The notes below the pieces were generated by a model, which did no database searches, had not been told where the DNA came from, and saw only the letters and a program-made list of their open reading frames with translations. Positions 1 through 24,749 of a stretch of DNA of 64,000 bases are shown here, piece by piece. The DNA is taken from NCBI GenBank assembly GCA_041653535.1, contig JBAZFH010000002.1, forward strand, positions 257,235 to 321,234, written 5' to 3'. Each line of letters starts with the position of its first letter. Position 1 is the stretch's first letter. The stretch comes from Patescibacteria group bacterium. Its GTDB lineage: Bacteria > Patescibacteriota > Patescibacteriia > JACRDY01. Made by a program: the position numbers and the translations under genes.

Positions 1-422
1 GGAAAACAGTAATTGGTTAGGCGGTTCAATATTTCAAAAAGTAGATTGGCTGATCCGCCCTCCATTATCTCTTGATAAAATTTGGGGTTTTTTTCACAGC
101 GAGTAAAAAATTCACGAAGCGGCGGCAGTTGACCATCGTGAATAGTAACTATAAAATTGCGACCAATAAAAAAATCAACTTCCGTAGCCTTTATTTCCCG
201 AGTTTTTCGATTGTAAATCGGGAAGAGTAGAACCATAAAAAGATATTCGTCGTGTTCTACTAATTTTGGTCGCTGTGTCGGAGGTAGACAGTCTTGGACG
301 TCAGTATGGTAAAAAGGAAAACTTTTTTTTAACCAGTTTATTTCCCGTAGAGTATTTTGAGTGACATTAAACCATTGAAAGCCACCCAATCGTAAAAGAT
401 GTATATGTTTTGGTTTTTCCAT
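1..422 (-). CDS. corA: Mg2+/Co2+ transporter CorA, N-terminal cytoplasmic region; gene runs off the window edge (partial)
   Basis: Minus-strand translation from ATG (complement of 420-422): MEKPKHIHLLRLGGFQWF...CLPPTQRPKLVEHDEYLFMVLLFPIY...VDFFIGRNFIVTIHDG. This matches the conserved CorA N-terminal pattern HPL..ED...QRPK.E.Y.DYLF.VL...F.GKNF.ITVH. The C-terminal TM part lies outside the window. Confidence 0.7.
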   Translation of the reverse strand, partial: MEKPKHIHLLRLGGFQWFNVTQNTLREINWLKKSFPFYHTDVQDCLPPTQRPKLVEHDEYLFMVLLFPIYNRKTREIKATEVDFFIGRNFIVTIHDGQLPPLREFFTRCEKNPKFYQEIMEGGSANLLFEILNRLTNYCF

Positions 423-543
423 AATTTATTTTTGTTTGTTAAAATATTATAACATATTTTGGTTTGATTGAGAAATAATAGTAATGACCCGTTACTAAAA
501 CTAGATATTTTTGCTATAATAGTAGTGTTAATATAATAAAATT

Positions 544-1077
544 ATGTCTCAAAAAGAAGGTAAAAAAGACGCGGCTTTTGCCCCGATAACCCCGGAGGTA
601 GTATCGCAAACTCCAGAATCGTTAGAACAACCATTAAATCCAGAGGATTTGGCTAGCCCAGAGACTACCACTGGAGTTGTAACTGAGGGCGAGCCGCAGA
701 CATCAACTGATGGTTATCCGCCGCTTCCTGGTTCGGGAACGGTCGGTAAAGCTGCTGATATTTTGGCAACGGCAAAAGACGAAACCCTGGAAAATATAGA
801 AGATATTTTAGAAGACGATTTAGAGCAGGTATACGCCAATTTACCGGAAGAAAAAAAACAAGAATTTAAAATTGAGGGAGAAAAAACAGCTTACGCCATC
901 CGGGGAGTTCTCTCTTCGGTAAGAATTAAAGCCAGAAGAATTTTTCGTCTGATTGCCAGTTGGCTGAAAATCGTCCCTGGAATTAATAAATTTTTTTTGG
1001 AACAAGAGGCAAAGATAAAAACTGATGAGATATTGGATTTGGTTGACGAGGAAAAGAAAAACAAAAATATAAAATAA
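544..1077 (+). CDS. hypothetical acidic protein (Glu/Asp/Pro/Thr-rich N-terminus)
   Basis: ORF of 177 aa with an AT-rich upstream region. No recognisable domain. Confidence 0.4.
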   Translation: MSQKEGKKDAAFAPITPEVVSQTPESLEQPLNPEDLASPETTTGVVTEGEPQTSTDGYPPLPGSGTVGKAADILATAKDETLENIEDILEDDLEQVYANLPEEKKQEFKIEGEKTAYAIRGVLSSVRIKARRIFRLIASWLKIVPGINKFFLEQEAKIKTDEILDLVDEEKKNKNIK

Positions 1078-7207: not shown

Positions 7208-7945
7208 ATGGAATACTACACGGCAGCCATTGTTTTATCTAAAAGCGACGTTAAGGAATACGACCGCTTTTTTTCGCTTTATACCAAAAATCTTGGCAAG
7301 ATATCGGTGCTTGCCCGGGGCGTACGACGACTGCAGAGTAAAATGGCTGGACATCTTGAGCCATTCGGCGTGGTGGTGGCTAAGATCGTTTTGGGTAATA
7401 AATCAGCGCGGTTATCTAATATCGAAACCATTGAAAGATATCAAAATATTATCAAAGATTTGGATTCTTTGCGCTTGGCTAAAAAATGTTTGACTGTTAT
7501 CAATAATTTGGTGAAAGAAGGCAGCTGCGATCTTGGTATTTTTGAGTTGCTTTCTTCCATATTATCGAACCTGGATGACAGGGATCGGTTAGTTTGGGAA
7601 AAAGAATTTTTATTTAGTGTTTTTATTTTGAAACTTTTAGTTCATCTGGGTTATCGGCCAGAGTTGTGTAACTGTGTTATATGTAAAAATCGTGTTATGC
7701 CCGAGGACAATATTTTTGATTTTTTACGCGGCGGGTTAGTTTGCGGTGATTGCAAAAAAGCTGTCGGTCTTGGCGGTAGCGGTCAGTTTGCGGTGAGCAG
7801 TAATGAAATAAAGGTGTTGCGGTTGATGCTGGAAAAAGATTTAGAATTTTTTTCAAAAAATAAAATTAATAAAAAATTAGCCGATTTTACCGGTAATTTG
7901 GTTAAAGGTTTTGCTCGAGTCGTGGGTGAGGTTGACTTTTTATGA
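7208..7945 (+). CDS. recO: DNA repair protein RecO
   Basis: N-terminal OB region (AIVLSKSDVKEYDRFFSLYTKNLGKISVLARG) and a C-terminal Cys4 zinc motif (CNCVIC...CGDC). Confidence 0.8.
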   Translation: MEYYTAAIVLSKSDVKEYDRFFSLYTKNLGKISVLARGVRRLQSKMAGHLEPFGVVVAKIVLGNKSARLSNIETIERYQNIIKDLDSLRLAKKCLTVINNLVKEGSCDLGIFELLSSILSNLDDRDRLVWEKEFLFSVFILKLLVHLGYRPELCNCVICKNRVMPEDNIFDFLRGGLVCGDCKKAVGLGGSGQFAVSSNEIKVLRLMLEKDLEFFSKNKINKKLADFTGNLVKGFARVVGEVDFL

Positions 7946-8046
7946 CAATATGATACAGTATAAATGTATGAAATTTATAGTTGTACAATTTAATAATAAT
8001 AATCAGCACTGGGGCTGACGAGTTTTTGTTTACTCGTCGTAAGATA

Positions 8047-8071
8047 GCCCCGCAAAGATCGCGGGGTTTTT
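8047..8071 (+). terminator. rho-independent terminator-like hairpin (GCCCCGCaaagatcGCGGGG + T-run)
   Basis: Perfect GC stem followed by TTTTT, seen directly in the sequence downstream of recO. Confidence 0.5.
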
Positions 8072-8092
8072 AAATAGGTTGTTTGCAAAATT

Positions 8093-8124
8093 CTCGGGTA
8101 GTTTAAAGGTAAAACGCCTGGCTG
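8093..8124 (+). repeat. degenerate copy of the tRNA-Asn 5' half (26 nt identical to the D-arm and anticodon-stem 5' side)
   Basis: CTCGGGTAGTTTAAAGGTAAAACGCCTGGCTG versus the tRNA segment TCTGGGATAGTTTAAAGGTAAAACGCCTGGCTG. Confidence 0.7.
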
Positions 8125-8138
8125 CCTGCCCGCCAGCC

Positions 8139-8210
8139 TCTGGGATAGTTTAAAGGTAAAACGCCTGGCTGTTAACCAGGATAGTGGAGGTTCGATTCCT
8201 CCTCCCAGAG
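8139..8210 (+). tRNA. tRNA-Asn (anticodon GTT)
   Basis: Hand fold. Acceptor TCTGGGA/TCCCAGA, U8, D-stem GTTT/AAAC with an A14..G18G19..A21 loop, anticodon stem CCTGG/CCAGG, loop CTGTTAA (anticodon GTT), T-arm GGAGG-TTCGATT-CCTCC, discriminator G. CCA is not encoded. Confidence 0.8.
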
Positions 8211-8228
8211 GCAGGCAATGGCAGGCGG

Positions 8229-8268
8229 GTTAACCAGGATAGTGGAGGCTCGATTCCTTCTCCCAGAG
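8229..8268 (+). repeat. near-identical copy of the tRNA-Asn 3' half (anticodon 3' stem through acceptor 3' strand; 2 mismatches)
   Basis: GTTAACCAGGATAGTGGAGGCTCGATTCCTTCTCCCAGAG versus the tRNA segment GTTAACCAGGATAGTGGAGGTTCGATTCCTCCTCCCAGAG. Confidence 0.75.
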
Positions 8269-8321
8269 TTTTGTAAACAAGCCGCGATGTCTGCCGGTTG
8301 AAGGCGGGTTAACGCTGTTTC

Positions 8322-8345
8322 ATTAACCAGATAAACCACCCCGCA
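8322..8345. repeat. REP-like GC hairpin repeat, copy A (aaccagataaaccacc + CCCCGCatgtGCGGGG)
   Basis: Shares the left arm with the 17904-17950 copy. Confidence 0.6.
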
Positions 8346-8705
8346 TGTGCGGGGTGAGTGCGTTTAAAAGCGTAGTTTTCGGACAAAGAGAAGCAACACC
8401 TTTATTTTGTTGACCATCTTTCGCCCTTATACCGCCTGCCTGCCGGTAGGCAGGGGCAGGCAGTTATCCAAGCTGCAGCGCCCTGCAGCTGGGCAACCAA
8501 AGAGTTTTGGGGGCTCCAGAAGCGCGAATACCTTAGCACCTCATCGTTCCTAAACCCGCCTCACCCTTTTCGCTCGCCCCGCCAAGGCGGGGCTCGACTC
8601 TCGGGGCTTCGGCTTTGGCGCAGCTTCCGCTCCCAAACCCCCGCAGTTTTAACAATTTAATATTTTTGAAATGAGGTTAAAGCCTTGGCTGGCATAAGCC
8701 AGCAA

Positions 8706-8748
8706 ACGGAAACCGCCCCGCTGCATAGCGGGGCGGTAGTTCATTTAG
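8706..8748. repeat. REP-like GC hairpin repeat, copy B (CGCCCCGCTgcatAGCGGGGCG + gtagttcattta)
   Basis: Identical over about 32 nt to the right part of the 17904-17950 copy. Confidence 0.6.
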
Positions 8749-8988
8749 CGTTCAGAATTATTAAATAACATTTAATTACACAACAACCCTGATTAATAAG
8801 TAGATAATTTTTACCCATAAAACCCTATAAAAACCCCTAAAATTGCTTAAAATATCCCAAATACTTTACAGGAATGGTTATTTGTGCTATATTTTAGAAT
8901 CTTGTCATCGTGGTGATGATGGGATTTCGCGCCTCAAATAGAGGCAAAATTCGACATTCGGCAAATAGCCGAAAGGAGGACGGGTATC

Positions 8989-10014
8989 ATGACAACTTAT
9001 CGTACTACGCTTTTGGAACAGGCGGCGCAGTTGATTCTCATGTTGGGCGGATCCGATAAGGTTACCGCACTACTTGAGAGTCGGGAAGGCGCCAACTTCA
9101 AGTTTGGTCAATTCGATTTTGGTCAGCTTGAGGCGATTCTCAACAAGCTCATTCAGGCCGGGGTTGCCGATCAAGGCGTACTCGGTCAGCTCTTGCGAGA
9201 CGAGTTGGAAATTCAGCTTGTGTCGGCAATCAAAAAGTTTTTCGCCCAAAATGGCCGCCGCATTCCCAGGGGTTTGAAAGCGAACCACACTGACTCCAAC
9301 CGTAACTTTCATCTCGTTCAGCCCAATCTGGATATGGTGGAAGCCCTGGCTTTGCGCCTAGTTCGGTTTCAGGAGGCGCTCCAACCGGGGCTGATCATGT
9401 CGGCGGCGGATTTCCAAGGCAAGGTCAATGAGCTCCTGACGGCGCTTAGCGCCGACGAGCAGATCGCCAATCTGACCAGCGGCATCTGCCTGCCAATCAT
9501 CATGCCGCAGATCGAGAAAAAGAAATTCGACTACGGCAAGGTTCTTGAGCAGACTTTTGTCGCGGCGGCTAAGAAGGCTTATGAGAAAGAGTTCTCCGGT
9601 CGGCCGTTCAACAACTACCGCAAGGACGATTTGTTCGGCAAGGTGACAATCATCGACGACAGCCATCGTCGGCTTGTCGAGCGGCTCTTCCAAAGCCATC
9701 TGGTCGCCTTGTACTTCCCAAACCCGCTTCAGGGCTTCTCAGTCCATGCCGACCGTGAGCAGATGGAAGGTTTGCCGACGACCCTGCACCTCGCTGGCGG
9801 GTTCGACACCCTGTCCGCCGTCACCATGTATCCGGATGTCCTGGGTCGGGATTTCAATACCCCGGGTCTGGACATGGCCGCACTGGAATGGCAGGGTCCC
9901 GGCCGCTCGCTCCACTTCGGGGTCGGCGACGGCAACGCCGGCTTCGGCGACGGGGCGGGCCTCGGCGATGCCGACGCCCGCTGTTCCGGCGGGCTCGTGT
10001 TCTGCCTCGCGTAG
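8989..10014 (+). CDS. DGR target (variable) protein; the C-terminal about 40 aa are encoded by the variable repeat
   Basis: 341-aa GC-rich ORF with RBS GGAGGA. The 3' 120 nt (VR) is a near-copy of the downstream TR and differs only where the TR has adenine. The C-terminus is ...GVGDGNAGFGDGAGLGDADARCSGGLVFCLA. Confidence 0.8.
   Translation: MTTYRTTLLEQAAQLILMLGGSDKVTALLESREGANFKFGQFDFGQLEAILNKLIQAGVADQGVLGQLLRDELEIQLVSAIKKFFAQNGRRIPRGLKANHTDSNRNFHLVQPNLDMVEALALRLVRFQEALQPGLIMSAADFQGKVNELLTALSADEQIANLTSGICLPIIMPQIEKKKFDYGKVLEQTFVAAAKKAYEKEFSGRPFNNYRKDDLFGKVTIIDDSHRRLVERLFQSHLVALYFPNPLQGFSVHADREQMEGLPTTLHLAGGFDTLSAVTMYPDVLGRDFNTPGLDMAALEWQGPGRSLHFGVGDGNAGFGDGAGLGDADARCSGGLVFCLA
9889..10009 (+). 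repeat. DGR variable repeat (VR)
   Basis: Aligned base-by-base to 10386-10507. About 22 mismatches, all at TR adenines (TR A to VR G or C), consistent with adenine-specific mutagenic retrohoming. The shared 3' end ttccggcggg.tcgtgttctgcctcg is a candidate IMH. Confidence 0.85.
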
Positions 10015-10385
10015 CGCAGCCCTTGGGACTTGGTTTCCTTGTCCCTCGGCTTGGATCCTTGGCATCAGTACCGCCGTTAGGCGGTCGCCACAAAATGGTA
10101 TTTCGGGGACGTATTCGTACGCCCCCTTTTCTTTTACAAAAAATCGGGTAGAATATACTTGGGAGTAGGTTAATGTATCTTAGTTCAAAAGATTAAGGTC
10201 ACCGAAACCTGGAATTTTTCCAATGTGCCAGAGTCCGATAGTTGCTATTTCGTGATTATCGGAGAGTGCACGGTAAAATTCTAAGCACTACTTGCCGGGC
10301 TCTAATGACCAACCTGGGTCAGAATAAAATACAGGGCGGATAGCAATATCTTCCCGGTGCTTATAGGCGGAGAACGGCAAAATTC

Positions 10386-10507
10386 TAGCAGGATCCCGAC
10401 CACTCGCTCAACTTCAAGGTCAACGACGACAACGCCGACTTCGACAACAGGACGAACCTCGGCAATGCCAACGACAACTATTCCGGCGGGATCGTGTTCT
10501 GCCTCGG
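10386..10507 (+). repeat. DGR template repeat (TR)
   Basis: Adenine-rich master copy. It is dominated by AAC/GAC/AAT codons (aac gac gac aac gcc gac ttc gac aac agg acg aac ...), as expected for a TR. Confidence 0.85.
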
Positions 10508-10561
10508 TTATGCTTAGAAAAAATTCAAAAGTCCCTCTGCGGTGCAGAAGGACTTTTGTTG

Positions 10562-10900
10562 TTATTGAACCGACTTTTGCCAACCACCAATCATTCTCCC
10601 AATTTCTTGAATTTGTTGTTGCAAGATAATGTACTTTTTATCCTCGAGTAGGTTTAAATCTTTGACAAGTCGGATAAATACTTTTAAGATGTCTAGTTTT
10701 AAACTGGCTTGCTGGATAAGTCGAGATTTGTCAGTCCGGACTCCTACGCTGGTAGCAATAAGCAGTTCCATGATCTCTAGGATATATTCCTCGCATTTAC
10801 CACCCAGAGCATATTTGTCTTTCTTCGGAAACAATTCCAAATAACCGTAAAAGATTTTGTACAGCTCATAAGTTTTTAAGATAATCGGCGTGTCTATCAT
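10562..10900 (-). CDS. avd: DGR accessory variability determinant (Avd; four-helix-bundle protein)
   Basis: 112 aa. The residue pattern LKTYELYKIFYGYLELFPKKDKYALGGKCEEYILEIMELLIATSV...LKVFIRLVKDL...IQEIGRMIGGW parallels Bordetella phage bAvd (YDQMLIVERY...IPRKHGVAREMFLKCLLGQVELFIVAGKS...VGRILGSW). Confidence 0.75.
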   Translation of the reverse strand: MIDTPIILKTYELYKIFYGYLELFPKKDKYALGGKCEEYILEIMELLIATSVGVRTDKSRLIQQASLKLDILKVFIRLVKDLNLLEDKKYIILQQQIQEIGRMIGGWQKSVQ

Positions 10901-11978
10901 ATGGTTAAGAGTTTTGATGAATTAATTAGTTTGAAGAATATTTTTAGTTGTTGGCGTGATTTTAGGAGAGATAAAGCCAAGAAGCCAGATGTTATGGAGT
11001 TTGAACGATGTTTAGAAGATAATATTTTTAAGCTTCATAATGAATTATCCTCCGATTGTTATCGCCACGGTCCCTATTCCACCTTCCATATCTACGACCC
11101 CAAGCATCGAGTTATCAGTAAGGCGTTAGTTCGTGATCGTCTAGTTCACCACGTGGTTTTTAACGAGCTCTATCGTATTTTTGATCCCAGCTTTATTTAT
11201 CATTCCTATTCTTCCCGAGTTGCCAAGGGCACACATTTGGCGGTTCTCAACTTATTTCATTGCCTCCGCCAAGTTAGCCACAATTACACCCAAACCGTCT
11301 ATATCCTCAAATGCGACATCAAAAAATTCTTTTGGAGCGTGGATCACCAAAAACTCTTGGCAATAATCCAAAACAAGATTAAAGACGAGAAGTTTCTTTG
11401 GTTAATCAACGAGATTATTGGGAGTTTTTTATCTACGAAAATTGCTAAGGGGGGGGGCTTTAAAGGGTTTGCCTATCGGTAATGTCACCTCGCAAATTTT
11501 CGCCAACATATATTTAAACGAATTAGACCAGTTCATTAAACACAAGTTGAAAATCAAGGACTATTTTCGCTACGCCGATGACTTTGTTATCGTTCATCCC
11601 CAAAAAGAATTTTTACAGACCACCTTAACACGAATCCAAGAATTTTTACAAGAGGAATTATTACTAGAACTTCATCCCGGGAAAGTTTCGATTCAAAAAT
11701 TTATACAAGGCGTGGACTTTTTGGGCTATGTTGTTTTACCGCGATATATTGTTTTAAGAACCAAAACTAAAAAACGGATGCTAAAGAAGATCAGTTTGAG
11801 GAAACAAAAATTGGAACAAGGTCTGATAGCAAAAGAATCGTTTAATCAGTCGTTGCAATCGTACTTTGGGATACTAAAGCATTGTCAGGGACGTGAAATA
11901 GGGCAAAAAATTCTGGAAATAGCTAAATATTCCCAAAAAAACTCCTTCAAAAAATCAGTTACGGTGTTACTAGACTGA
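10901..11978 (+). CDS. DGR reverse transcriptase (frame broken by a 1-nt excess in a G9 tract at 11449-11457)
   Basis: N-terminus YRHGPYSTFHIYDPKHRVISKALVRDRLVHHVVFNEL parallels the bRT segment YERGPYREFLVYEPKPRLISALEFKDRLVQHALCNIV. After the frameshift come GLPIGNVTSQIFANIYL (the DGR-specific I/LGxxxSQ motif 4) and RYADDFVIV (YADD). The two ORFs 10901-11482 and 11418-11978 join in frame if the G tract is 8 nt. Confidence 0.8.
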
Positions 11979-12013
11979 ATTCGGAGATATTGAGGTAGTT
12001 ATCTATCTAAAAA

Positions 12014-12046
12014 TAAAAAAGGATGTATCAGATACATCCTTTTTTG
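12014..12046. terminator. bidirectional rho-independent terminator (GGATGTATCaGATACATCC, A-run and T-run on either side)
   Basis: Perfect 9-bp stem flanked by aaaaaa and tttttt, between the convergent RT and nucleoside hydrolase genes. Confidence 0.65.
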
Positions 12047-12053
12047 GTTGTTG

Positions 12054-13109
12054 TTAAAACCGTAACGCGGAAGTTTCCGCGGCGGTTAAAAATTGACGTA
12101 GACCGTCAATGTCTCGGACACCGTGATTGTCGGATGAAACGCCGATGACCAAATGTCGTACTCCGTTGACCCACACTTCGGTTGGGTCGAAAAACGTGTC
12201 GATTAAGTTCGGTATGGCGGCGACAAAGTTAATCGGGTCGTATAGGTTGAAATTTTGGACATACGACCAGATGTCATCGCCGTCATTAATTGCGGGATCA
12301 ACGTCGCCGCAGAAGACTTTAACAAACCATTGGCGGTTTCGGTCGACCGGCAGCGTACCGCGAATTTTTGATTCGGGAGCGGAACAAGCCGCTTGCCATA
12401 GTTTTTGCAGCGCGGGCTTTTGCCGACCTTTTAAACAATCGCCGATAGGATTGCCCGTATTTTCCATATCGTCATAGACAGTAAGGGGAAATTGGCAGGC
12501 ATACGCTGCGTCTCGAGTGGTAATAATCATCGGAATTTTTAATTCTTGCAGTCGCCAGTACAAAAAAACAGCTGATTCGCGGTCGAATTCGTTGTTGTTG
12601 GCGTTATTGGGTGTCATCATGCCGCGAATGTCAAGTTTGATTTTTTTATTTTCGGTTTCGACGCCGCCCATAATAGCAACCTGGCGGATTTTTTGTGTAA
12701 ATAAAAATGGTTCTCGGTCTAACAATTCGGCCGCATCGGTCATACCTGATTGTAGCACCAAAATTACGTTTCGATCGCTGCTTTTTAGCAGAGTGGTTTT
12801 TAGGAGATCAAAACCGTTTGGCAACACCTCGCTTAAATCGGCAAGATAGGAAATTCGTGTTTCGTAAGGGTGGGTTTTTCCCTCAAAGACTGGCGTGCCA
12901 ACAGCAACAGGAACGCTGTCCAGGTCGAGCTGTTTGAGCATACCTTTGGCTATGCGAGCGCGTAAATGCGCCGGCGATAGATTGGCGACGACCGCTTTTA
13001 AGTTGATTATGCCTTGACGGGCGAGTCGGGCGGCGACAAGTAACGTGTGTTCATCGTCGAGGTCTTTACCAAAGTCGCCGATGATAACCAAGTTTGGTCT
13101 AGCAGTCAT
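12054..13109 (-). CDS. inosine-uridine-preferring nucleoside hydrolase (IU-NH) family protein
   Basis: N-terminal aspartate cluster IIGDFGKDLDDEHTLL resembles the IUNH DXDXXXDD motif. Length 351 aa. Confidence 0.55.
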   Translation of the reverse strand: MTARPNLVIIGDFGKDLDDEHTLLVAARLARQGIINLKAVVANLSPAHLRARIAKGMLKQLDLDSVPVAVGTPVFEGKTHPYETRISYLADLSEVLPNGFDLLKTTLLKSSDRNVILVLQSGMTDAAELLDREPFLFTQKIRQVAIMGGVETENKKIKLDIRGMMTPNNANNNEFDRESAVFLYWRLQELKIPMIITTRDAAYACQFPLTVYDDMENTGNPIGDCLKGRQKPALQKLWQAACSAPESKIRGTLPVDRNRQWFVKVFCGDVDPAINDGDDIWSYVQNFNLYDPINFVAAIPNLIDTFFDPTEVWVNGVRHLVIGVSSDNHGVRDIDGLRQFLTAAETSALRF

Positions 13110-13121
13110 TTTACCTTCCCC

Positions 13122-13850
13122 TTATTTGTAACCTAGCTGGTGATACAACGCCAAGGCAATGAAGGATTTTCCGTCTTGAATGACGGAAGATAAGAGTCTC
13201 AGTTGCAATATCTGAAGGGTGATTTTTTCTCCTTCATTTGCAACACCGGTGATTTTGTTTTGCAGTTCTTGCATTTTTTTTCGGGTCATGACCAGTTTGA
13301 TCATGTAAAATTTTGCTTTTTCGTCGAGCATACCAGGGCTGAAATAAATCCCGTTGGCGCTCGCCGGAAGATTCTCGGTCATGTCGATTAATTCTTTTTG
13401 TCCGACAACCAAACCAAGTTCCTCGTATAATTCACGAGCTGCCGCGCCGGAAAAAGTACCGTTGTCGATCATGCCAGCGGGTAGCTCAGGCAATGCGATT
13501 TTGCCGGTAGCGATACGCGGTTGGCGAACCAAGACAGTAAAAATTTCGCCGTCCACATCAATAATCGGCAGCATGACAACGGTGTTGCCACGCAGTTCAA
13601 CGACCGCCGGATAGAGCAGGTTGGCACAGGTAACCTTCATCCGAATAAACAAGACGTTTTTCGCGGTCGCTTCTCCGCGAAAATCAACAGCTTGGATAAA
13701 GATGTGGGAAATTTTGAATTTCCGGCTCAGGCTATTTTTCCAGTTTTTGAAGATTCTGGAATTAATTGCCATTGTGGCTTCCGTAAAGTTCACGGCGACA
13801 GAATAAGATATTTCTACATCTTGGCGGTTGATTTTTACGATGCCTTGCAT
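13122..13850 (-). CDS. NUDIX hydrolase (ADP-ribose pyrophosphatase-like)
   Basis: Nudix box GTFSGAAARELYEELGL (Gx5Ex7REUxEExGU). Confidence 0.7.
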   Translation of the reverse strand: MQGIVKINRQDVEISYSVAVNFTEATMAINSRIFKNWKNSLSRKFKISHIFIQAVDFRGEATAKNVLFIRMKVTCANLLYPAVVELRGNTVVMLPIIDVDGEIFTVLVRQPRIATGKIALPELPAGMIDNGTFSGAAARELYEELGLVVGQKELIDMTENLPASANGIYFSPGMLDEKAKFYMIKLVMTRKKMQELQNKITGVANEGEKITLQILQLRLLSSVIQDGKSFIALALYHQLGYK

Positions 13851-14186
13851 GCCTTTTCTCCTTTGTTTTTTCGATTTTTAATGGACTGGTAGTCAAGATT
13901 GTCAAAATCGTTGATTGCTAATATTACCAATAATTTGAAGGTTTTGTCAACATGCCGTATTGTTTACTATCGCGAAGAGGCGCTAGTTTTTCATTTTTTT
14001 ATAAACAAAGAATCCGTCTTTGTATATTTATAATATTTCTGTTTTCTTTGGCTTCCGGTTTGAGTAGTGTTGCTAATATGATTACTTTACTTAAATTGTT
14101 AATTGTGGTGAAAAGTGATAAAATTAAGCTATCAGTGTAACTTTCGTCGGTAGAAGTCGTCTTATATCGAGTACCTTGTCGTATTT

Positions 14187-15947
14187 ATGAAGGATAATAC
14201 TAAAAAAACAATATCGATTTATTGGCATAACCTTATGCAGTACAAAGGTTATGTTTTTGTTATGCTTTTTTCAGTGCTGGGTGCGTCTATAATAAACGTG
14301 ATTATCCCACTTTTTTTCAAAGATTTTTTTGATATTTTATCCAGTGGGCAAGAGCAGTCGGCGATAATCGATGGACTGATAAAGGTTTTAATACTGATTG
14401 GTATTTGGAGTTTAGTTCAATGGGGATTCTGGCGCATTGCTACTTTTACCGCCAGTTACTTTTATTCGAAGGTGATGATGAACATGACCAACTACTGTTT
14501 CGCTTATTTGCATAAACATTCCTTTTCTTTTTTTAACAACAATTTTGTTGGTTCTTTAACTAAAAAAGTAAAATGGTTTGTTAACGCTTTTGAAGATATT
14601 CTTGACCGTATCACTTGGAGCTTTCTGCCGTTGGTAGTAAATATCGTGGTTATTATATTCGTTTTGTACCGTCGTAGCTGGGCGCTCGCCGCCGGCATGG
14701 GTGTTTGGATAGTTTTGTTTATAATAGTTAATGGTTTTTTTACCAAATATAAACTCAAATACGATATCCAGCGTAGCGCTGCCGAGACCGAATCAACGGC
14801 AATATTAGCTGATACTATCACTAATCATAACAACGTTAAGCTTTTTAACGGTTATCAGCGAGAGATAGATAATTATAGCGGGGTTAATGAAAAATTAAGA
14901 AAATTGCGTCGTTGGACCTGGGATTTCGATAATTTTTTTGACGCGGTTCAAGGTTTGCTGATGACTGTTTTGGAAGTAGGAATATTTTATCTGGCAATTC
15001 GGCTATGGCAAAAGGGAGTTTTGACAGTAGGTGATTTTGTCTTGATTCAATCTTACGTTCTCAATATTTTTCAGCGCGTTTGGGATTTTGGTCGAATAAT
15101 CCGCGGTCTATATACGCGCCTTGCTGACGCTGAAGAAATGACAATAGTATTACAAACTCCGCACGAGGTGAGAGATTACCGCTACGCTAAGGACCTGAAA
15201 GTTCGTCAAGGTAAAATAGAATTTAAAAAAGTTGATTTTTGTTATCAAAAAACCAGAAAGGTTTTAGCTCAACTGAGCTTGATAATAAAACCGCACGAAA
15301 GGCTGGCTTTGATTGGTCCTTCGGGCGCCGGTAAAACCACGGTGGTCAAATTGTTGTTACGAATGCATGATTTGACCGGCGGAAAAATTTTGATTGATGG
15401 TCAGGATATTTCCAAGGTAAAACAAGAAAGCTTGTGGCGGGCAATCAGTTTGGTGCCGCAGGATCCAATACTTTTTCACCGGTCGCTGAGAGATAATATC
15501 GCTTACGGTAAACCAGACGCGACCGATCAGGAGGTGGTAGAAGCGGCAAAAGCAGCTCACTGTCATGAGTTTATTACTTCTTTTCCTGAAGGCTATGATA
15601 CTTTCGTCGGTGAGCGAGGAGTGAAGCTGTCCGGCGGTGAACGTCAGCGTGTAGCGATTGCTCGGGCAATACTGCGCAATGCGCCGATACTCGTTTTAGA
15701 CGAAGCAACGTCAAGTCTGGACAGCGAATCGGAAATACTGATTCAAGACGCTTTGGACAAATTAATGAAAAATAAAACCGTAATCGTAATCGCGCATCGA
15801 CTTTCGACGATACGAAAAGTTGATCGGATAGTGGTGATTGATGAAAAGGGAATAGTAGAAGAGGGTAGTCACGAACAACTGAGTAAAAAGCCAGATGGTC
15901 TGTATCACAAGTTATGGCAGCTGCAGGCCGGTGGGTTTATTGAATAA
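14187..15947 (+). CDS. ABC exporter, fused permease/ATPase (MsbA-like)
   Basis: Six predicted TM segments, then Walker A GPSGAGKTT, signature LSGGERQRVAIARA and Walker B ILVLDEATS. Confidence 0.85.
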   Translation: MKDNTKKTISIYWHNLMQYKGYVFVMLFSVLGASIINVIIPLFFKDFFDILSSGQEQSAIIDGLIKVLILIGIWSLVQWGFWRIATFTASYFYSKVMMNMTNYCFAYLHKHSFSFFNNNFVGSLTKKVKWFVNAFEDILDRITWSFLPLVVNIVVIIFVLYRRSWALAAGMGVWIVLFIIVNGFFTKYKLKYDIQRSAAETESTAILADTITNHNNVKLFNGYQREIDNYSGVNEKLRKLRRWTWDFDNFFDAVQGLLMTVLEVGIFYLAIRLWQKGVLTVGDFVLIQSYVLNIFQRVWDFGRIIRGLYTRLADAEEMTIVLQTPHEVRDYRYAKDLKVRQGKIEFKKVDFCYQKTRKVLAQLSLIIKPHERLALIGPSGAGKTTVVKLLLRMHDLTGGKILIDGQDISKVKQESLWRAISLVPQDPILFHRSLRDNIAYGKPDATDQEVVEAAKAAHCHEFITSFPEGYDTFVGERGVKLSGGERQRVAIARAILRNAPILVLDEATSSLDSESEILIQDALDKLMKNKTVIVIAHRLSTIRKVDRIVVIDEKGIVEEGSHEQLSKKPDGLYHKLWQLQAGGFIE

Positions 15948-16138: not shown

Positions 16139-17176
16139 ATGCTTTATCTACCTCACCCAGCAATGGTTTTGACCACAACCGGTTCGGACGTTTTGGCACA
16201 AGCCATTGCCGAAGAACTTAAACGACGACTGCCAACTGATTTACAGGCTGATCCTATTTTTGTTTCACCACAAGTGGTTCGGTTCTCTAATGACAATATT
16301 CAAGTGCAAGTGCCGAACGTTCGTGGTCATGTGGCAGTGATCGTACATACTCAAGTGCCGCCGGTTAATGATCATTTGGTGGAATTGTTTGAATTGATTG
16401 CCGCAGCGCGTGACGCTCGCGCTTACGACATCATGGTGGTTTTTCCGTACATGCCGTATGCTCGGTCGGATCGCAAAAATAAACCGCGAATTTCGACTAT
16501 GGGTGTGGTTTTGCCGCAGCTCATCGAAAACTTGGGAGTCAAGCGCGTTTTATTGCTTGATCCTCACGATACGCATATCAAGCACTATTTTCGACCGGGC
16601 GCAGATGAAATATCGGCGGTTTATCTGCTGATAGATTATTTGCAAAATAATTTTTTCACCACCACGCCCAGGGAAGAATGCACGTTGGTTTTTTCCGACG
16701 AAGGTTCGTCGAAACGTTTTGGTCATGTGTCGGGAATGTTGAAAATTCCCACCGCTCACATCGATAAAACTCGTTTGGATGATACCGAGCGACCTAAGGC
16801 TGAAATGATGATTGGTGACGTGCGCGGTCGGACGGCCATTATCATCGATGACGAAATTTTGACCGGTCGGACGGTCGAAGAAGACGTGGCGATTATTAAA
16901 GCAGCCGGTGCTGCCAAGGTGATCATGATTGCTATTCACGCACCGATGGATGATATCAAGACTTCAGCGACGGAAGTGATTAATCGTCTGGAGCGTTCGG
17001 CAGTGGATCAGTTTATTGTTACTGATTCGATTCCGATAGCCCATAAACTTGAACTAAGTAGTAAAATCAAAGTGCTGTCGGTCGCCGGTCTGCTCGCTGA
17101 AGCGATTAACCGTGAGGTGACCGATCAGTCACTGACCGAACTACATCAACTGGAAAACGCCGGTCTTTATCGTTAA
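16139..17176 (+). CDS. prs: ribose-phosphate pyrophosphokinase (PRPP synthetase)
   Basis: VVFPYMPYARSDRK and PRPP-binding loop IIIDDEILTGRT. RBS GGAGGGGAG. Confidence 0.85.
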   Translation: MLYLPHPAMVLTTTGSDVLAQAIAEELKRRLPTDLQADPIFVSPQVVRFSNDNIQVQVPNVRGHVAVIVHTQVPPVNDHLVELFELIAAARDARAYDIMVVFPYMPYARSDRKNKPRISTMGVVLPQLIENLGVKRVLLLDPHDTHIKHYFRPGADEISAVYLLIDYLQNNFFTTTPREECTLVFSDEGSSKRFGHVSGMLKIPTAHIDKTRLDDTERPKAEMMIGDVRGRTAIIIDDEILTGRTVEEDVAIIKAAGAAKVIMIAIHAPMDDIKTSATEVINRLERSAVDQFIVTDSIPIAHKLELSSKIKVLSVAGLLAEAINREVTDQSLTELHQLENAGLYR

Positions 17177-17186
17177 AAGTTACGAC

Positions 17187-17218
17187 AAACCTCCTGATTT
17201 TAATGTCAGGGGGTTTTT
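17187..17218 (+). terminator. rho-independent terminator (AACCTCCTGA...TCAGGGGGTTTTT)
   Basis: Stem-loop followed by a T-run immediately after the prs stop codon. Confidence 0.6.
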
Positions 17219-17338
17219 AAAATCCGGCAGATCGCAGCCGGCATAGATGTATTTTTTAACATTGACTTTTTTTTGCAAAGGAGCTAAATTGTATAGCCAG
17301 CTTTTGACGAATAATGTTTTTTTCAAAGGAGGAAGTAA

Positions 17339-17857
17339 ATGAAAAGCGTTAAGGTGCTATCGGTGGTTTTAATTTTGGTGTTGGCGGCGGCTTTTTCGAC
17401 CGGTTGCGGTCGAACCCCTTCGCGATTTCTGGGCAAGGATTCGCGACAGATTTTGACAGTAGAAGGGATGGCGGAGTATATCAACACCAGCTTTGACTGG
17501 CGGCAAGACAGTACTGTCAAAGACGTTACTTTCAAAGCTCTCGACGGCTATGTCTATACGCGGGAGTTCAAAGACGCGCACATGTTTCAGGGCGTGATCC
17601 GTTGGGTGCCGTTTAATGAAACTGATTCAATCGTTCAGTCACGGGCACTTTCCCGTTGGGTCGGCGGAGTGGTTAATTTGCGTTTACCCGAGGACTGCGC
17701 ACAAGTGCTTGGTGTAGACGTTAGTTATTCTGGTTCCAATGAAAGAGTAAAAAATTTAGCCTATCGTTCAAACACCGGTCAGATTTTTGTCCGAGAATAT
17801 CGGGAAGGTCTAATCAATCGGCGTTTTGAAGGTTGGCTAGAGATAGTCGCAAAATAG
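17339..17857 (+). CDS. lipoprotein, function unknown
   Basis: Signal peptide plus lipobox (LAAAFSTGC). RBS AAGGAGGAAG. Confidence 0.55.
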   Translation: MKSVKVLSVVLILVLAAAFSTGCGRTPSRFLGKDSRQILTVEGMAEYINTSFDWRQDSTVKDVTFKALDGYVYTREFKDAHMFQGVIRWVPFNETDSIVQSRALSRWVGGVVNLRLPEDCAQVLGVDVSYSGSNERVKNLAYRSNTGQIFVREYREGLINRRFEGWLEIVAK

Positions 17858-17903
17858 CAAGTCAGTCGTAGATCCCGTGTTTAAAAAACACGGGATTTTT
17901 ATT

Positions 17904-17950
17904 TAACCAGATAAACCACCCCGCTGCATAGCGGGGCGGTAGTTCATTTA
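17904..17950. repeat. REP-like GC hairpin repeat, joined form (ttaaccagataaaccacc + CCGCTgcatAGCGGGGCGgtagttcattta), plus a second hairpin at 17958-17985
   Basis: Left part equals 8322-8340 and right part equals 8712-8747. Sits between convergent genes. Confidence 0.6.
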
Positions 17951-17991
17951 ATAACAAAAAAAGCCCCGTCGGGTGACGGGGCGGTGGTTTG

Positions 17992-18550
17992 TTACTTGGG
18001 TTTTTTCTGCGTTTTTCCCTTGGGATTTTTGCTGCGCGCAGCAGCAACCAGCTGTTGCAGGGTCATGCCGCTGCTGATGATGTCGACGAGCTCTTCCAGA
18101 AGATCCGGTTTTTCTCGCAGTGTCGCCTTGGTTCTGGCTCGGACGTTGTCGTCGCCTTCGATCGGGACCTGGCGAATACGCGGTTTGGTCGCTTTACCTT
18201 CTTCGGCTGTTTTTTTCCAGAGCGTGATTGATAAAATTTTCAGCTCCGCCAAGGATTTTTTCGGCCAAATTGATCGCTCTGTCACCACGGTCTTTCAGCG
18301 TGTTGCCGGTCTTTTTGGCAAGGTTGAAAGTCTTTATGACTTTTTCGAACAGGGGAGAGTCTTCTTCGGTGAACTCGGCCGGGACGTGAATGAACTTTTC
18401 TTTGCCGCTGTTTTCAACGGTGAAATTAATTCCAGTCTCGGTAAAAATTTGGACGAATTTAGTGAACTGGGTGATGTCGTTGAAGGCAAAGACAATCGTC
18501 AGTTTTCCATTTTCGTCCGGGGATATAAAAACGTTTTTGTTACTTGCCAT
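17992..18550 (-). CDS. hypothetical protein, interrupted by a frameshift at an A7 tract (about 18213-18219 on plus strand = T7)
   Basis: ORFs 18194-18550 and 17992-18288 overlap in different frames. Removing one A in the minus-strand A7 run joins ...NHALEK to TAEEGKATKPRIRQVPIEGDD... into a protein of about 186 aa. Confidence 0.4.
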
Positions 18551-19040
18551 GACCCTTGGCTCCTTTTTGTTGTTTTTGCATCAGGTTGTCAAAAATTTTG
18601 TTGTAGGCTTTCACATAGGTGACCCAGACTGTGTTTGCGGAGGCGTAGGTGCCTTCCGCATTTTTTAGACCTGTCCAATTTTGCAGCCCGTAATATTTTT
18701 GTTTTTGTTGCCAAAATTTTTCCAATTTTTCGGTGGTCATATCTTTTCTTTTGGCAATGTTCAAAATTTCATATGGATCGGTCAGGTTTTTTATCCTTCT
18801 CACTTCATTTTTTACCCAAAGGATTAACCGCGGATCAACGGCGGTCCGTGGTTCGGGCAATGTTTTACCGGTAAGAAGGGTAAATATCCGTCTGCCGGCA
18901 CGGCGAATGTCATAAGGGAGTAATAAGTCGGGGATGTCGGTTCTTTTGATCCCATAGTCTTCGTCGCCGGTGGTGATCAGCATGATGTCGCGGTAAAGAT
19001 TGTCGAGACGATTAACAACGAGATTTACCTTTTTAGGCAT
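18540..19040 (-). CDS. hypothetical protein (start MPKKVNLVV, RBS GGAGGT)
   Basis: ATG (complement of 19038-19040) is preceded by GGAGGTAAT. The ORF track's longer N-terminus lacks an RBS. Confidence 0.5.
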   Translation of the reverse strand: MPKKVNLVVNRLDNLYRDIMLITTGDEDYGIKRTDIPDLLLPYDIRRAGRRIFTLLTGKTLPEPRTAVDPRLILWVKNEVRRIKNLTDPYEILNIAKRKDMTTEKLEKFWQQKQKYYGLQNWTGLKNAEGTYASANTVWVTYVKAYNKIFDNLMQKQQKGAKGHGK

Positions 19041-19214
19041 TATTACCTCCTTACAGTGGGGGATTGATTTGTATGTCAACGAACTTGGAATTGGTCTTTA
19101 AAGTTATCAAAATGGGGGTTTAATGTCAATTGAGGGAATTAGGGGCTGGGAACTAGGAACTGGGAACTGGGGGTTGGGGATGGGTGTGGATAAGACGGTT
19201 ATTGACGTTTTTAG

Positions 19215-19248
19215 TTAGTGTGTTAGTATGTGTATAGAATACACTAAG
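19215..19248. promoter_or_regulatory. palindromic operator candidate TTAGTGTgttagtatGTGTATagaATACACTAAG immediately upstream of nrtR
   Basis: Nested inverted repeats (GTGTAT-N3-ATACAC inside TTAGTGT...ACACTAA), ending 7 nt before the nrtR ATG. Related to the site before pnuC. Confidence 0.5.
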
Positions 19249-19255
19249 ATAAAAT

Positions 19256-19933
19256 ATGGTCAAGAAATTAACCAAAAAATACAAATTTGCCACTATTGCT
19301 ACCGATGTGGTTATTTTTACCATCAAAGACGAAAAGCCGCAGGTACTACTGATTAAGATGAAGAAAAAACCTTTTGCTGACTCGTGGGCAGTACCGGGCG
19401 GGTTAGTACATGGTGATGAATCGGTTGACCGAGCGGCACGCCGTCATCTTTTTTCTAAAACCGGTCTCAAAGACGTTTATCTCGAACAGCTTTATACTTT
19501 TGGTAGTGTTGATCGCGATCCTTTTGGTCGGGTAGTGTCGGTTGCTTATTTTGCCCTGATTCCGAATGCCGACTTGAAACTAAAAACCACCAGTGAATAT
19601 GCCGGAGTGCAATGGTGTCCGGTAGATAAATTGCCAAAACTTGCCTATGACCACAAAGAGGTGGTGAGTAAAGCGGTAGAAAGACTGCAGGCTAAACTTG
19701 GTTATACCAATATTGTTTTTGGGCTGCTACCGCCAGAGTTTACTTTGTCGGAGCTACAAAAGACTTACGAAATAATACTCGGTAAGAAATTAGATAAAAG
19801 AAACTTTCGCAAAAAATTGTTTAGTCTGAAACTGGTGCAAAGTACCGGTGGTCGCAAAGCGGGGGATGCTAATAGACCGGCTGAGCTTTATCGTTTTGCC
19901 AGCAAACACCCGCAGCTAATCGAGATCCTTTAA
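19256..19933 (+). CDS. nrtR: Nudix-related transcriptional regulator NrtR-like (degenerate Nudix domain plus C-terminal winged-helix region)
   Basis: Nudix-like segment GGLVHGDESVDRAARRHLFSKTGL. Length about 225 aa. It heads a pnuC-nadR operon, the classic NrtR context. Confidence 0.55.
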   Translation: MVKKLTKKYKFATIATDVVIFTIKDEKPQVLLIKMKKKPFADSWAVPGGLVHGDESVDRAARRHLFSKTGLKDVYLEQLYTFGSVDRDPFGRVVSVAYFALIPNADLKLKTTSEYAGVQWCPVDKLPKLAYDHKEVVSKAVERLQAKLGYTNIVFGLLPPEFTLSELQKTYEIILGKKLDKRNFRKKLFSLKLVQSTGGRKAGDANRPAELYRFASKHPQLIEIL

Positions 19934-19958
19934 TTCCTTTTTATTTTTTATCCAGAGT

Positions 19959-19977
19959 TAGTGTAATAAATACACTA
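19959..19977. promoter_or_regulatory. palindrome TAGTGTA-ataaa-TACACTA upstream of pnuC (candidate NrtR box)
   Basis: Perfect 7-bp inverted repeat with a 5-nt spacer. Shares GTGTA...TACAC half-sites with the nrtR-upstream site. Confidence 0.5.
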
Positions 19978-20016
19978 TAAAGATATAAATAATCTAATAA
20001 ATAAAGAAAAAAGCAT

Positions 20017-21649: not shown

Positions 21650-21824
21650 ATCTTGACATTTTATATCTATTATGTTAAGTTTTGGGGTTAGAGCTGACGG
21701 TATTTAACACGTAGAAAAACAAAGAAAAAAGTAGCTAAAATCTGGCTAATTTTTTCTAGCTTTGATTGCAAATATCAAGGCTGAAGTGAACATTAAATTC
21801 AAAAACGAAGAAGGGAGGATATAG

Positions 21825-22622: not shown

Positions 22623-22661
22623 CCGTTGATGATAGTCACACGAAAGGAAAGGAGATTTCCG

Positions 22662-23411: not shown

Positions 23412-23457
23412 AAAAAACAACACGTGCGGAGGGTGCTCTACGGAGTACCTTCCGCCC

Positions 23458-23520
23458 TAGAAAATTTGCACCAAAGAAATTTGGTTCAAGCTTTCTGGTC
23501 ACAACCACACGGCTGCGGCC
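23458..23520 (+). promoter_or_regulatory. conserved about 60-bp promoter/operator module, copy 1; core 24-bp palindrome TTGCACCAAA-GAAA-TTTGGTTCAA at 23466-23489
   Basis: AGAAAATTTGCACCAAAGAAATTTGGTTCAAGCTTTCTGGTCACAAC... Near-identical copies at 24750-24812 and 26380-26440. Each copy follows a GC hairpin and precedes a gene start by about 80 bp. Confidence 0.6.
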
Positions 23521-23600
23521 TAAAATGTTCTTTAAATTTCAGTTACTCATAAATCAACCAACCAACTTTTGTCCAAAAAAGTTCAGAAAGGGGATAGAAA

Positions 23601-24701: not shown

Positions 24702-24749
24702 CTAAACAAACACGCGGCGGGCGTCTTTATAAAAAGGGCGTCCGCCGAC

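Follow-up and report, generated by a model that had tools for sequence, protein, structure and literature searches.

A tRNA-Asn gene nested within the halves of another tRNA-Asn recurs in a clade of Patescibacteria and is best read as the product of insertional replacement

The unusual organization of a tRNA gene in a Patescibacteria group bacterium forms the subject of this report. The DNA analyzed, hereafter “the window,” is a stretch of 64,000 nucleotides (GenBank assembly GCA_041653535.1, contig JBAZFH010000002.1, positions 257,235 to 321,234 of the forward strand). In it, an intact gene for tRNA-Asn(GTT) is located between the two halves of a second copy of itself. Nested arrangements of this kind, with junctions that differ from one another, are present at the same locus in distantly related lineages of these ultra-small bacteria. 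The feature is thus a clade-wide, recurrent nesting of tRNA-Asn, and it is best read as insertional replacement: in our judgment, there is about an even chance that the resident tRNA-Asn has been replaced repeatedly by insertion of a palindrome-flanked tRNA-Asn cassette of ~100 nt. The original prediction for this locus had described the half-copies and had explained them as successive attL/attR scars of tRNA-targeting integrases, by way of which the diversity-generating retroelement (DGR) found downstream would have arrived.

The coordinates of the features discussed below are collected in Table 1. ARAGORN reports a single tRNA-Asn(GTT) in this region (8138/8139 to 8210/8212), which Rfam assigns to its tRNA family with a score of 72.8 bits. 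A repeat search and blastn-short both located two partial copies of this gene. The 33-nt copy on its 5′ side is 94% identical to the live gene (its 26-nt core is 100% identical, E = 8e-10), with C in place of G at acceptor position 4 and G in place of A at position 7. The 40-nt copy on its 3′ side is 95% identical (E = 2e-13) and differs by a T54-to-C change in the T-loop and a C-to-T change in the T-stem that results in a G-U pair. The gaps that separate these copies from the intact gene measure 14 nt (8125–8138) and 18 nt (8211–8228; 19 nt if the shared G is counted). ARAGORN, Rfam, and BLAST therefore agree with the description of the locus in the original prediction, and the statistical support for it is solid. 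Anticodon G34 is both the last base of the 5′ copy and the first base of the 3′ copy; hence, the two are complementary halves of one gene. They represent tRNA positions 1–33 and 33–72, and their in silico joining produced a sequence that was called as tRNA-Asn(GTT). In its intron mode, ARAGORN did not recognize the outer copy as a tRNA with an intron. No half-copies were detected by blastn-short around the three other tRNA genes of the window.

The piece that interrupts the outer copy is 104 nt long, comprising a left flank (CCTGCCCGCCAGCC), the intact tRNA, and a right flank (GCAGGCAATGGCAGGCGG). The GC content of these flanks is 72–86%, vs. 42% for the window. As had been predicted, the spacers are GC-rich and palindromic: the motif GCCTGCC/GGCAGGC is found 11 times in the window (3.9 occurrences are expected), six of them within 8124–8461, and the two spacers are mutually complementary and paired in the minimum-energy fold (z = −4.5). 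Only 10 of 1000 shuffled sequences equalled the flank duplex of the window. The fold of the whole region describes a tRNA within a hairpin within a tRNA-like shell (z = −4.5).

Relatives were reached via homologs of RecO and the contigs that encode them. A RecO-based search for the locus and a D-arm pattern search of the tRNA, both against 185,579 reference genomes, found no relatives, the clade being unrepresented in that set; a metagenome scan with a pattern of the D-arm plus CTG retrieved 20 loci, all of which were phage-type tRNA arrays or chance matches, with no close relative among them. Nine lineages were compared: the window and those that we designate L022, L025, L027, L028, L029, L030, L038, and L039. 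For the seven lineages compared initially, RecO identity is 51–62% in every pair, and the tree is star-like; L038 and L039, which were added later, have RecO proteins 57% and 53% identical to that of the window. The gene order herA-like, adk, map, ruvX, recO is kept, followed by tRNA-Asn. In a more distant contig (L040; 37% RecO identity), the tRNA is missing from the site after recO.

The D-arm of the window’s tRNA-Asn (AGTTTAAAGGTAAAAC; 8099–8114 and 8146–8161), when combined with an Asn anticodon, was found in none of the 185,579 reference genomes. The same D-arm is present in metagenomic tRNA-Asn genes that belong to phage-style tRNA arrays (L005, L015, L017, L018, and L020), and these arrays are a possible hint at the source of the window’s allele.

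Shells of outer tRNA-Asn pieces take several forms in the relatives. In L025, a 5′ part (positions 1–37) is followed by TCCCGTAAAATT, an intact tRNA, AATTATACGGGA, and a 3′ part (positions 34–72). TTAA (or TA) is duplicated at the junctions, the AT-rich flanks are complementary at 11 of 12 positions, and the outer copy is intact; the joined outer halves were called as tRNA-Asn(GTT), and the region folds into a perfect double cloverleaf (z = −6.3). L027 and L028 have the junction of the window (after G34) and the outer flank termini CCTGCCCGC...GGCAGGCGG. Their shells have D- and T-arms of the window type, and their cores have D- and T-arms of the L025 type. Positions 34–50 are missing from the L027 shell, and the L028 contig stops inside the core tRNA. 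L029 contains stacked 5′ fragments (positions 1–10, 1–13, and 1–49), an intact tRNA, and a 3′ fragment (positions 33–73). Its intact tRNA is part of a continuous helix of ~27 bp formed by the flanks and the acceptor stem, and the D-loop and T-loop of its dead copies hold GC-rich palindromes of 39 and 40 nt (z = −8.0).

The remaining arrangements are more degraded or simpler. L022 has a 9-bp flank pairing around the intact gene and a BLAST-confirmed 3′ remnant with a palindrome inserted in its T-loop; a possible 5′ remnant of ~13 nt was seen by eye. In L039, a perfect 9-bp inverted repeat surrounds the intact gene, and a 3′ remnant with a T-loop insert follows. L038 has one tRNA-Asn and no shells; its gene is found within an exact 11-nt direct repeat, GTCGGTAAAAT (1621–1631 and 1709–1719 of that contig), which could be either a target-site duplication or a remnant of a tandem unit. 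We therefore grade the shells as full (the window, L025, and L027/L028), stacked (the three 5′ fragments plus the 3′ fragment of L029), or degenerate (L022 and L039).

Several regularities hold across these loci. All upstream fragments begin at tRNA position 1, and all downstream fragments finish at the 3′ terminus. A second intact tRNA-Asn gene was seen in none of the nine lineages. Complementarity between the 22-nt sequences that flank the intact gene was tested in seven lineages and is present in six (0–11 of 1000 shuffles were as good); it is missing in L038 (151 of 1000) and in the three other tRNA genes of the window (283–555 of 1000). The inner flanks do not resemble the sequence located 5′ of the outer 5′ half or 3′ of the outer 3′ half. 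Finally, the outer copies are decaying: that of the window has a C4:C69 mismatch and C54, that of L027 lacks positions 34–50, and those of L029 and L022 are fragmentary. From these defects, we conclude that, very probably, the inner gene alone is live and the outer halves are relics without function.

How might such nests be built? In the mechanism that we propose, a cassette of ~104 nt, consisting of a tRNA and two complementary GC-rich flanks, would have inserted at G34 in the anticodon loop of the resident tRNA-Asn. The old gene would have been split by this event into 8092–8124 and 8229–8268, which would now be pseudogene relics. Repeated events in the clade would give rise to concentric shells of dead tRNA-Asn pieces, with position-1 pieces piling up upstream and 3′-terminal pieces piling up downstream; related GC-rich palindromes that carry no tRNA would also insert into the dead copies. 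The insertion points and flanks are not the same everywhere: insertion is at G34 in the window, L027, and L028, after TTAA in L025, and in the T-stem in L029 (flanks TGGCCCGCCCC.../...GGGGCGGGGTGGGC). Two lineages whose junctions differ and whose flanks are unrelated both have exactly complementary halves, for which the simplest account is insertion of a flank-tRNA-flank unit into an intact tRNA-Asn, repeated over time. Because the shell and the core of L027 and L028 are different alleles, the core is not a duplicate made in situ. That the window, L027, and L028 have the same junction and the same 9-nt termini around different cores points to transfer of the cassette. So does the identical 21-nt left flank of L027 and L028, whose RecO proteins are 60% identical and whose ordinary intergenic DNA is scrambled.

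Why should a tRNA-Asn be found inside a tRNA-Asn? Insertion into a tRNA gene that is essential and present in single copy would be tolerated only if the element supplied a functional copy of the same tRNA, and selection could thus account for the match; homology-guided targeting would not be required. A further constraint may come from the way in which the gene is expressed. If, as the features described below would suggest, tRNA-Asn is transcribed only through an upstream attenuator with Asn codons, then a replacement would be expressed and regulated only if it landed within the ~100–150 nt behind that attenuator, a space that is mostly occupied by the old gene. We also propose, tentatively and as a possibility, that the cassette is an undescribed selfish or transferable unit: a complete tRNA gene in a short inverted repeat that overwrites its single-copy, essential cognate.

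The element upstream of the nest resembles a leader-peptide attenuator that controls a tRNA gene via its own Asn codons. A promoter-like site heads the transcription unit that holds the nest, and in all nine lineages a TTGACT-16/17-TATACT/TATAAT box precedes a mini-ORF by 8–14 nt. This predicted open reading frame (ORF) has 15–19 codons, 4–8 of which are Asn codons, in nine of nine lineages; the ORF, the Asn run, and a C-terminal (W/R)-G-stop are kept in all of them. A 1:2 hairpin (CAGC...GCUG) begins directly after the Asn run and spans the stop codon, which is overlapped by region 2 (GGGGCU). A GCCCCG...CGGGGC terminator with a U-run is present in the nine lineages, and its 5′ arm can alternatively pair with GGGGCU of region 2 as an antiterminator. 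Calculated duplex energies in these lineages are comparable for the two pairings, ranging from −12.1 to −16.3 kcal/mol for 2:3 and from −11.2 to −17.9 kcal/mol for 3:4. The terminator pairs are invariant in the alignment; covariation in the attenuator is limited because its arms are nearly invariant. The promoter scan detected no promoter-like sites on the + strand between the terminator and the tRNA, and in L025 the tRNA-Asn is the only thing downstream of the attenuator on its strand. Judging from the sequence, a shortage of Asn-tRNA would stall ribosomes and allow read-through into the tRNA-Asn gene.

Leader-peptide attenuators are known from the trp, his, leu, thr, pheA, and pheST leaders. 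The present element has in common with them a promoter, a run of codons for a single amino acid, mutually exclusive 1:2, 2:3, and 3:4 hairpins, and a U-run terminator. It differs from them in its Asn codons, in its nearly leaderless ORF, and in being followed by the gene for the cognate tRNA and not by a biosynthetic operon or a synthetase gene. A limited literature search found no precedent for an attenuator ahead of a tRNA gene, which is absence of evidence and not proof of novelty. Elsewhere in the window, two genes for class II (Asp/Lys/Asn-type) aminoacyl-tRNA synthetases are located 2 kb apart (36377–37666 and 39609–41006); were either an AsnRS, it would bear on the making and sensing of Asn-tRNA.

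Table 1. Features of the tRNA-Asn locus, in window coordinates.
Feature	Position	Strand	Basis or remark
Promoter-like site TTGACT-16-TACAGT	7932–7959	+	Promoter scan; heads the transcription unit that holds the nest
Leader mini-ORF MKFIVVQFNNNNQHWG*	7968–8018	+	Predicted; four consecutive Asn codons
Attenuator 1:2 hairpin TCAGCACTGGGGCTGA	8003–8018	+	Nine-sequence consensus fold and hairpin scan
Attenuator 3:4 terminator AGCCCCGC-aaagatc-GCGGGG, then TTTTT	8046–8071	+	Consensus fold
Leader of the outer, dead copy, GCAAAAUUCU	8085–8091	+	Pairs with the trailer (8269–8275) in the minimum-energy fold
Outer shell, 5′ half	8092–8124	+	Positions 1–33 of the older tRNA-Asn, up to anticodon G34
Left cassette flank CCTGCCCGCCAGCC	8125–8138	+	86% GC; with CTG of the outer half, pairs to the right flank
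Intact tRNA-Asn(GTT)	8139–8210	+	Sole copy with a perfect cloverleaf; presumed functional gene
Right cassette flank GCAGGCAATGGCAGGCGG	8211–8228	+	72% GC; pairs with the left flank
Outer shell, 3′ half	8229–8268	+	G34 through the discriminator base
Trailer of the outer copy, AGAGUUUUGU	8269–8275	+	Pairs with the leader (8085–8091) in the minimum-energy fold
Older debris	8302–8336	+	Repeat search (12/12 identical) and reading of the sequence
Hairpin CACCCCGCATGTGCGGGGTG	8337–8356	+	Short form of the CCCCGCAT...TGTGCGGGG hairpin found 3′ of tRNA-Asn in L022 and L029
“Empty” palindrome CCGCCTGCCTGCC-GGTA-GGCAGGGGCAGGCAG	8431–8464	+	Arms as in the cassette flanks; no tRNA inside

The nest is accompanied by debris and by palindromes that lack a tRNA. 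A further copy of the junction AGGCGG-GTTAAC (AGGCGGGTTAAC) is present at 8302–8313 (12/12 identical), and a degenerate start of a 3′ half, TTAACCAG-ATA, was read from the sequence at 8324–8336. GC-rich hairpins are concentrated at 8.1–8.74 kb of the window. GC palindromes with related ends and no tRNA are found in the D-loop or T-loop of dead copies (L029, L022, and L039), as well as at 8431–8464 of the window. The flank terminus CCTGCCCGC, which is restricted to tRNA-Asn loci, is common to the window, L027, L028, and L029; GGCAGGCGG is common to the window and L027. The motif GCAATGGCAG of the window’s right flank is also present in L022 and L029, where it is upstream of a tRNA. In total, 10 occurrences of the termini and the GCAATGGCAG motif were counted in the 2.5 kb that make up the tRNA-Asn loci vs. 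0 in 118 kb of other clade DNA, a count that covers ~6% of one genome. In L027, a different GC-rich hairpin (CGCCGCC-TGC-GGCGGCG) is found in two copies, in the map/ruvX and ruvX/recO intergenic regions (7458–7476 and 7942–7960); these twin hairpins look REP-like or like twin terminators.

Searches of phage and viral sequences yielded little that resembles the nest. Matches to the nest in a BLAST search of phage records were confined to the tRNA body of tRNA-Asn genes from Bacillus and Gordonia phages, and the shared anticodon arm was found in the viral collection only in ordinary phage tRNA-Asn genes without shells. The palindrome reconstructed as the “attP” of L025 had one chance match there, in coding DNA of 52% GC. 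A gapped junction of the window type had 96 matches, nearly all of them in high-GC phages; one was in an AT-rich contig, L111, and was tRNA-less. This viral contig (37% GC) has an intergenic cluster of GCCTGCC/GGCAGGC palindromes at 9425–9475 that resembles the cassette flanks, with no tRNA nearby.

A number of these observations weigh against replacement by a cassette. The termini are absent outside tRNA-Asn loci (0 in 118 kb), and the mobility of the cassette is thus something that we infer and did not observe. The circular-junction sequences gave only chance or uninformative matches in the viral collection, and a unit of ~100 bp is too small to be a classical double-stranded, circular attP substrate. 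No integrase, recombinase, or transposase that might have moved the cassette was found by Pfam scans, which covered all window ORFs of at least 120 aa (64 kb). The C4:C69 mismatch implies that the outer halves of the window either derive from different genes or have been altered by mutation or gene conversion. Target-site duplication is inconsistent, being TTAA/TA in L025 and at most 1 nt (one G) in the window and L027. Whereas the sequence GCAGGCAATGGCAG follows the live tRNA in the window, it immediately precedes a tRNA in L022 and L029; its presence on opposite sides of the gene is more easily explained by a former tandem array. Finally, selection for an RNA processing stem could be the reason why the flanks are conserved and covary.

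The last two points lead to two rival explanations. Decay of a tandem tRNA-Asn array, which we consider unlikely, would require that an upstream copy lost its 3′ part and a downstream copy its 5′ part via deletions between the anticodon loop and the loop of a palindromic spacer (with TTAA/GTTAAC as microhomology); the product would be a 5′ half, half a spacer, the tRNA, the other half of the spacer, and a 3′ half. Indeed, both flanks together make up a hairpin spacer, and its reconstruction from L025 is a perfect palindrome centered on TTAA, as is present in the anticodon loop. The additional GGCGG-GTTAAC at 8302–8313 suggests that GTTAAC may be native to the spacer, and the non-matching acceptor strands of the window’s outer halves, the placement of GCAGGCAATGGCAG, and the 11-nt direct repeat around the L038 tRNA are also in keeping with a former array. 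However, two intact copies were observed in none of the nine lineages, and at least two duplications plus two precisely placed deletions would be needed per lineage, in several lineages. The dissimilarity between the inner flanks and the sequence outside the outer halves speaks against decay, as do the different alleles of shell and core in L027/L028. The strict polarity of the fragments is expected from nesting but only partly from array decay. Alternatively, the nest may be a functional RNA design in which the outer halves and the paired flanks act as a scaffold in an attenuator-controlled precursor; the flanks might provide a long processing stem (RNase III-like entry), the tRNA-like shell might aid release of the inner tRNA, or the outer copy might mature in an intron-like manner. 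The nested folds are far more stable than those of shuffled sequences (z from −4.5 to −8.0), flank pairing is kept with entirely different sequences across lineages, and the shell 5′ half and flank termini are near-identical in the window, L027, and L028 at 51–60% RecO identity. Moreover, the outer copy of L025 is fully intact, and the persistence of close direct repeats, which are prone to deletion, also counts in favor of function. We nevertheless regard this design as quite improbable. The host is bacterial, there is no bulge-helix-bulge motif, and no tRNA-splicing endonuclease was found among the window ORFs of at least 120 aa; a group I intron would need a longer insert, and no such match was found in Rfam. 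Cuts by RNase P and RNase Z would leave outer pieces without an anticodon loop. Nor can the outer copy be a conserved functional tRNA, since L038 lacks it and only truncated or fragmentary versions are left in L027, L029, L022, and L039.

The explanation offered in the original prediction, namely att scars of tRNA-targeting integrases, integration of the DGR block at tRNA-Asn, and later loss of the integrase, appears very improbable. It is true that tRNA genes, and notably their anticodon loops, are classical integrase targets (PMC4383910, PMC9897764), that the segment from tRNA-Asn to the ABC transporter is different in every lineage, and that the GC content of the DGR target gene is 0.58 vs. 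0.42 for the window. Of the proposed succession of scars, insertional events at the tRNA gene, the split in the anticodon loop, and the debris at 8302–8336 all survive scrutiny. The geometry is not that of attL/attR: there are halves on both sides, 14–18 nt from the intact gene, which together amount to exactly one gene, and the spacers are complementary. The prediction that no integrase gene remains holds for all window ORFs of at least 120 aa, and none (nor any recombinase or transposase) is present among the called genes at the relatives’ loci. The distal copy of the 3′-half repeat that an integrated block should have left was not found; in 7900–14300, neither the tRNA nor the spacers are repeated beyond the DGR, and the sole long repeat is that of the variable repeat (VR) and template repeat (TR). 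Nor do the DGR-free relatives offer an empty site with a clean tRNA: half-copies without a DGR are found in L025, L022, and others, with shells in L025, L027, L029, L022, and L039 and a single tRNA only in L038. This is the very outcome that the original prediction had named as speaking against integration. Of the DGR block, which had been described as compositionally foreign and GC-rich, only the target gene and VR/TR are GC-rich; the GC content of the reverse transcriptase (RT) is host-like (0.37). The nest is therefore no evidence for how the DGR arrived; there is no link between the two, and on present evidence the DGR is a bystander. An assembly artefact, in which collapsed or chimeric repeats yield false half-copies, has a negligible likelihood. 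Repeats do disturb assemblers, and five contigs from independent short-read samples (L001, L026, L028, L030, and L031) end in or just before the nest; evidently the half-copies break short-read assemblies there, or the populations are heterogeneous. However, the independent Logan assembly of run SRR18595300 (L001) is base-for-base identical over the whole nest, which excludes mis-assembly of this contig, and the same architecture is found with different sequences in at least five independent samples and lineages.

Other candidate mechanisms were rejected. Replication slippage or template switching that copied natural flanks does not accord with inner flanks that are unlike the outer flanks. 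Retro-insertion by the DGR RT was dismissed since shells are present in relatives with no DGR or RT in the sampled flanks (up to 8 kb); furthermore, we see no route from cDNA to nest. Breakage at GTTAAC by a restriction enzyme of the HpaI type is at odds with junction positions that vary by lineage. An archaeal-type intron would have two 3-nt bulges 4 bp apart, and these are missing; the outer copies are not conserved, and the host is bacterial. In the window, the two junctions are located opposite one another at the foot of a single helix, one strand of which has a 5-nt bulge; those of L025 form a single 3-nt bulge. A group I intron was discarded because the insert is 104 nt, 72 nt of which are tRNA, and because no Rfam family except tRNA reached its gathering score in the window.

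Regarding the neighborhood, the housekeeping genes upstream of the nest encode a HerA-like ATPase, Adk, Map, RuvX, and RecO. Downstream of tRNA-Asn, the genes up to the ABC transporter differ in every lineage: the window has the DGR, L022 has a DUF2178 gene and an HTH gene, and L025 has an (ornithine) decarboxylase/ATP-grasp cluster on the opposite strand. The DGR is a genuine one: its VR is at 9891–10009 and the TR at 10388–10506, and all 23 mismatches between them (23/23) fall on template adenines. The GC-richness of the target gene and VR/TR is due in part to the fact that variable repeats are adenine-poor. The RT (10901–11978) consists of two overlapping ORFs that are split at a run of nine G (11449–11457), which could be a sequencing error, a pseudogene, or a slippery run. 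Beyond the DGR are a nucleoside-hydrolase-like gene, a NUDIX gene, and the ABC transporter. DprA, a competence protein, is encoded in the window. A long run of NAD/nucleotide salvage genes occupies 16139–30040 (PRPP synthetase, NrtR-type NUDIX regulator, PnuC transporter, NadR-like, isochorismatase-domain protein, ADP-ribosylglycohydrolase, NMNAT/NAD-kinase fusion, NAPRTase, and NAD synthase). At 56494–59412, two genes of the RelA/SpoT family (482 and 488 aa) are located side by side, both with HD, synthetase, and TGS domains in the same order.

How does the nest compare with known systems? For displaced tRNA fragments, we used Islander (PMC4383910) and van der Gulik et al. 2023 (PMC9897764) as sources. 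In classical integrase islands, there is a single displaced tRNA fragment, on one side only, and it indicates the distal boundary of the kb-sized island. The nest is similar in that a tRNA is split (often in the anticodon loop), an intact copy is found beside a partial one, and fragments are stacked; it is dissimilar in that the ~104-nt insert is a whole tRNA plus an inverted repeat, with neither an integrase nor a boundary repeat. A repeat of the classical type is present elsewhere in the window: the last 20 nt of tRNA-Met(CAT) (45977–46050), including CCA (AAATCCAACCCCCGCAACCA), are exactly repeated ~85 nt downstream at 46135–46154, a one-sided 3′-fragment scar in contrast to the two-sided Asn nest. 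Disrupted tRNA genes of archaea include intron-containing, split, and permuted forms (PMC4390854, PMC4033280). Like these, the nests are interrupted in or near the anticodon loop, have GC-rich complementary sequences that unite the halves, and have short GC-rich inserts in D-, anticodon, and T-loops. Among the archaeal examples, the split tRNAs of Nanoarchaeum have GC-rich complementary leaders. Unlike disrupted archaeal tRNAs, the present ones are in a bacterial host, have no bulge-helix-bulge, and are decaying, and the “intron” is a complete tRNA of the same identity. We found no precedent for a tRNA nested within a tRNA of the same identity in a limited literature search, although this is not proof of novelty.

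Small GC-rich palindromic elements are also known from AT-rich genomes, for instance the GC clusters of yeast mitochondria, Rickettsia palindromic elements, and REP/MITE/PATE sequences. Similarities to these include a size of 36–41 nt when empty, a genome of 42% GC, residence in structured RNA genes, ends common to distant lineages, and a single instance of TA/TTAA duplication. As in miniature inverted-repeat transposable elements (MITEs), the termini are inverted repeats, given the complementary flanks in six of seven lineages; dispersed copies, by contrast, numbered 0 outside tRNA-Asn loci in the 118 kb of clade DNA. Unlike small palindromic elements, those described here are limited to the tRNA-Asn locus (121 kb examined), and some of them carry a whole tRNA. 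Group I introns, finally, occur in the anticodon loops of bacterial tRNAs (bioRxiv 10.1101/2020.01.27.920355), and they share with the nest the interruption of a bacterial tRNA gene within that loop. The ~104-nt insert is unlike them in being mostly tRNA and in having no group I core according to Rfam.

Fragments of tRNA genes are usually taken as integrase footprints that delimit genomic islands. Here, the same kind of footprint is found without an island, and the rule can thus mislead in Patescibacteria. On the practical side, the repeats at the nest break short-read assemblies of the locus. The Asn attenuator ahead of tRNA-Asn suggests a testable circuit, in which ribosomes that stall at Asn codons would report how much of the cognate tRNA is available. 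If the reading of the nest as insertional replacement by a cassette is true, it would show by what route very small genomes can have an essential, single-copy tRNA gene replaced horizontally. Bacteria would then also have an equivalent of the disrupted archaeal tRNA genes, for which both protection from mobile elements and an origin in them have been discussed. Such a selfish cassette would be effectively unlosable, as it would insert in the loops of a gene while supplying the replacement, leaving concentric pseudogene shells behind. It would, moreover, act within a second unusual feature, a tRNA under an attenuator made of its own codons, which would place the supply of that tRNA under direct feedback.

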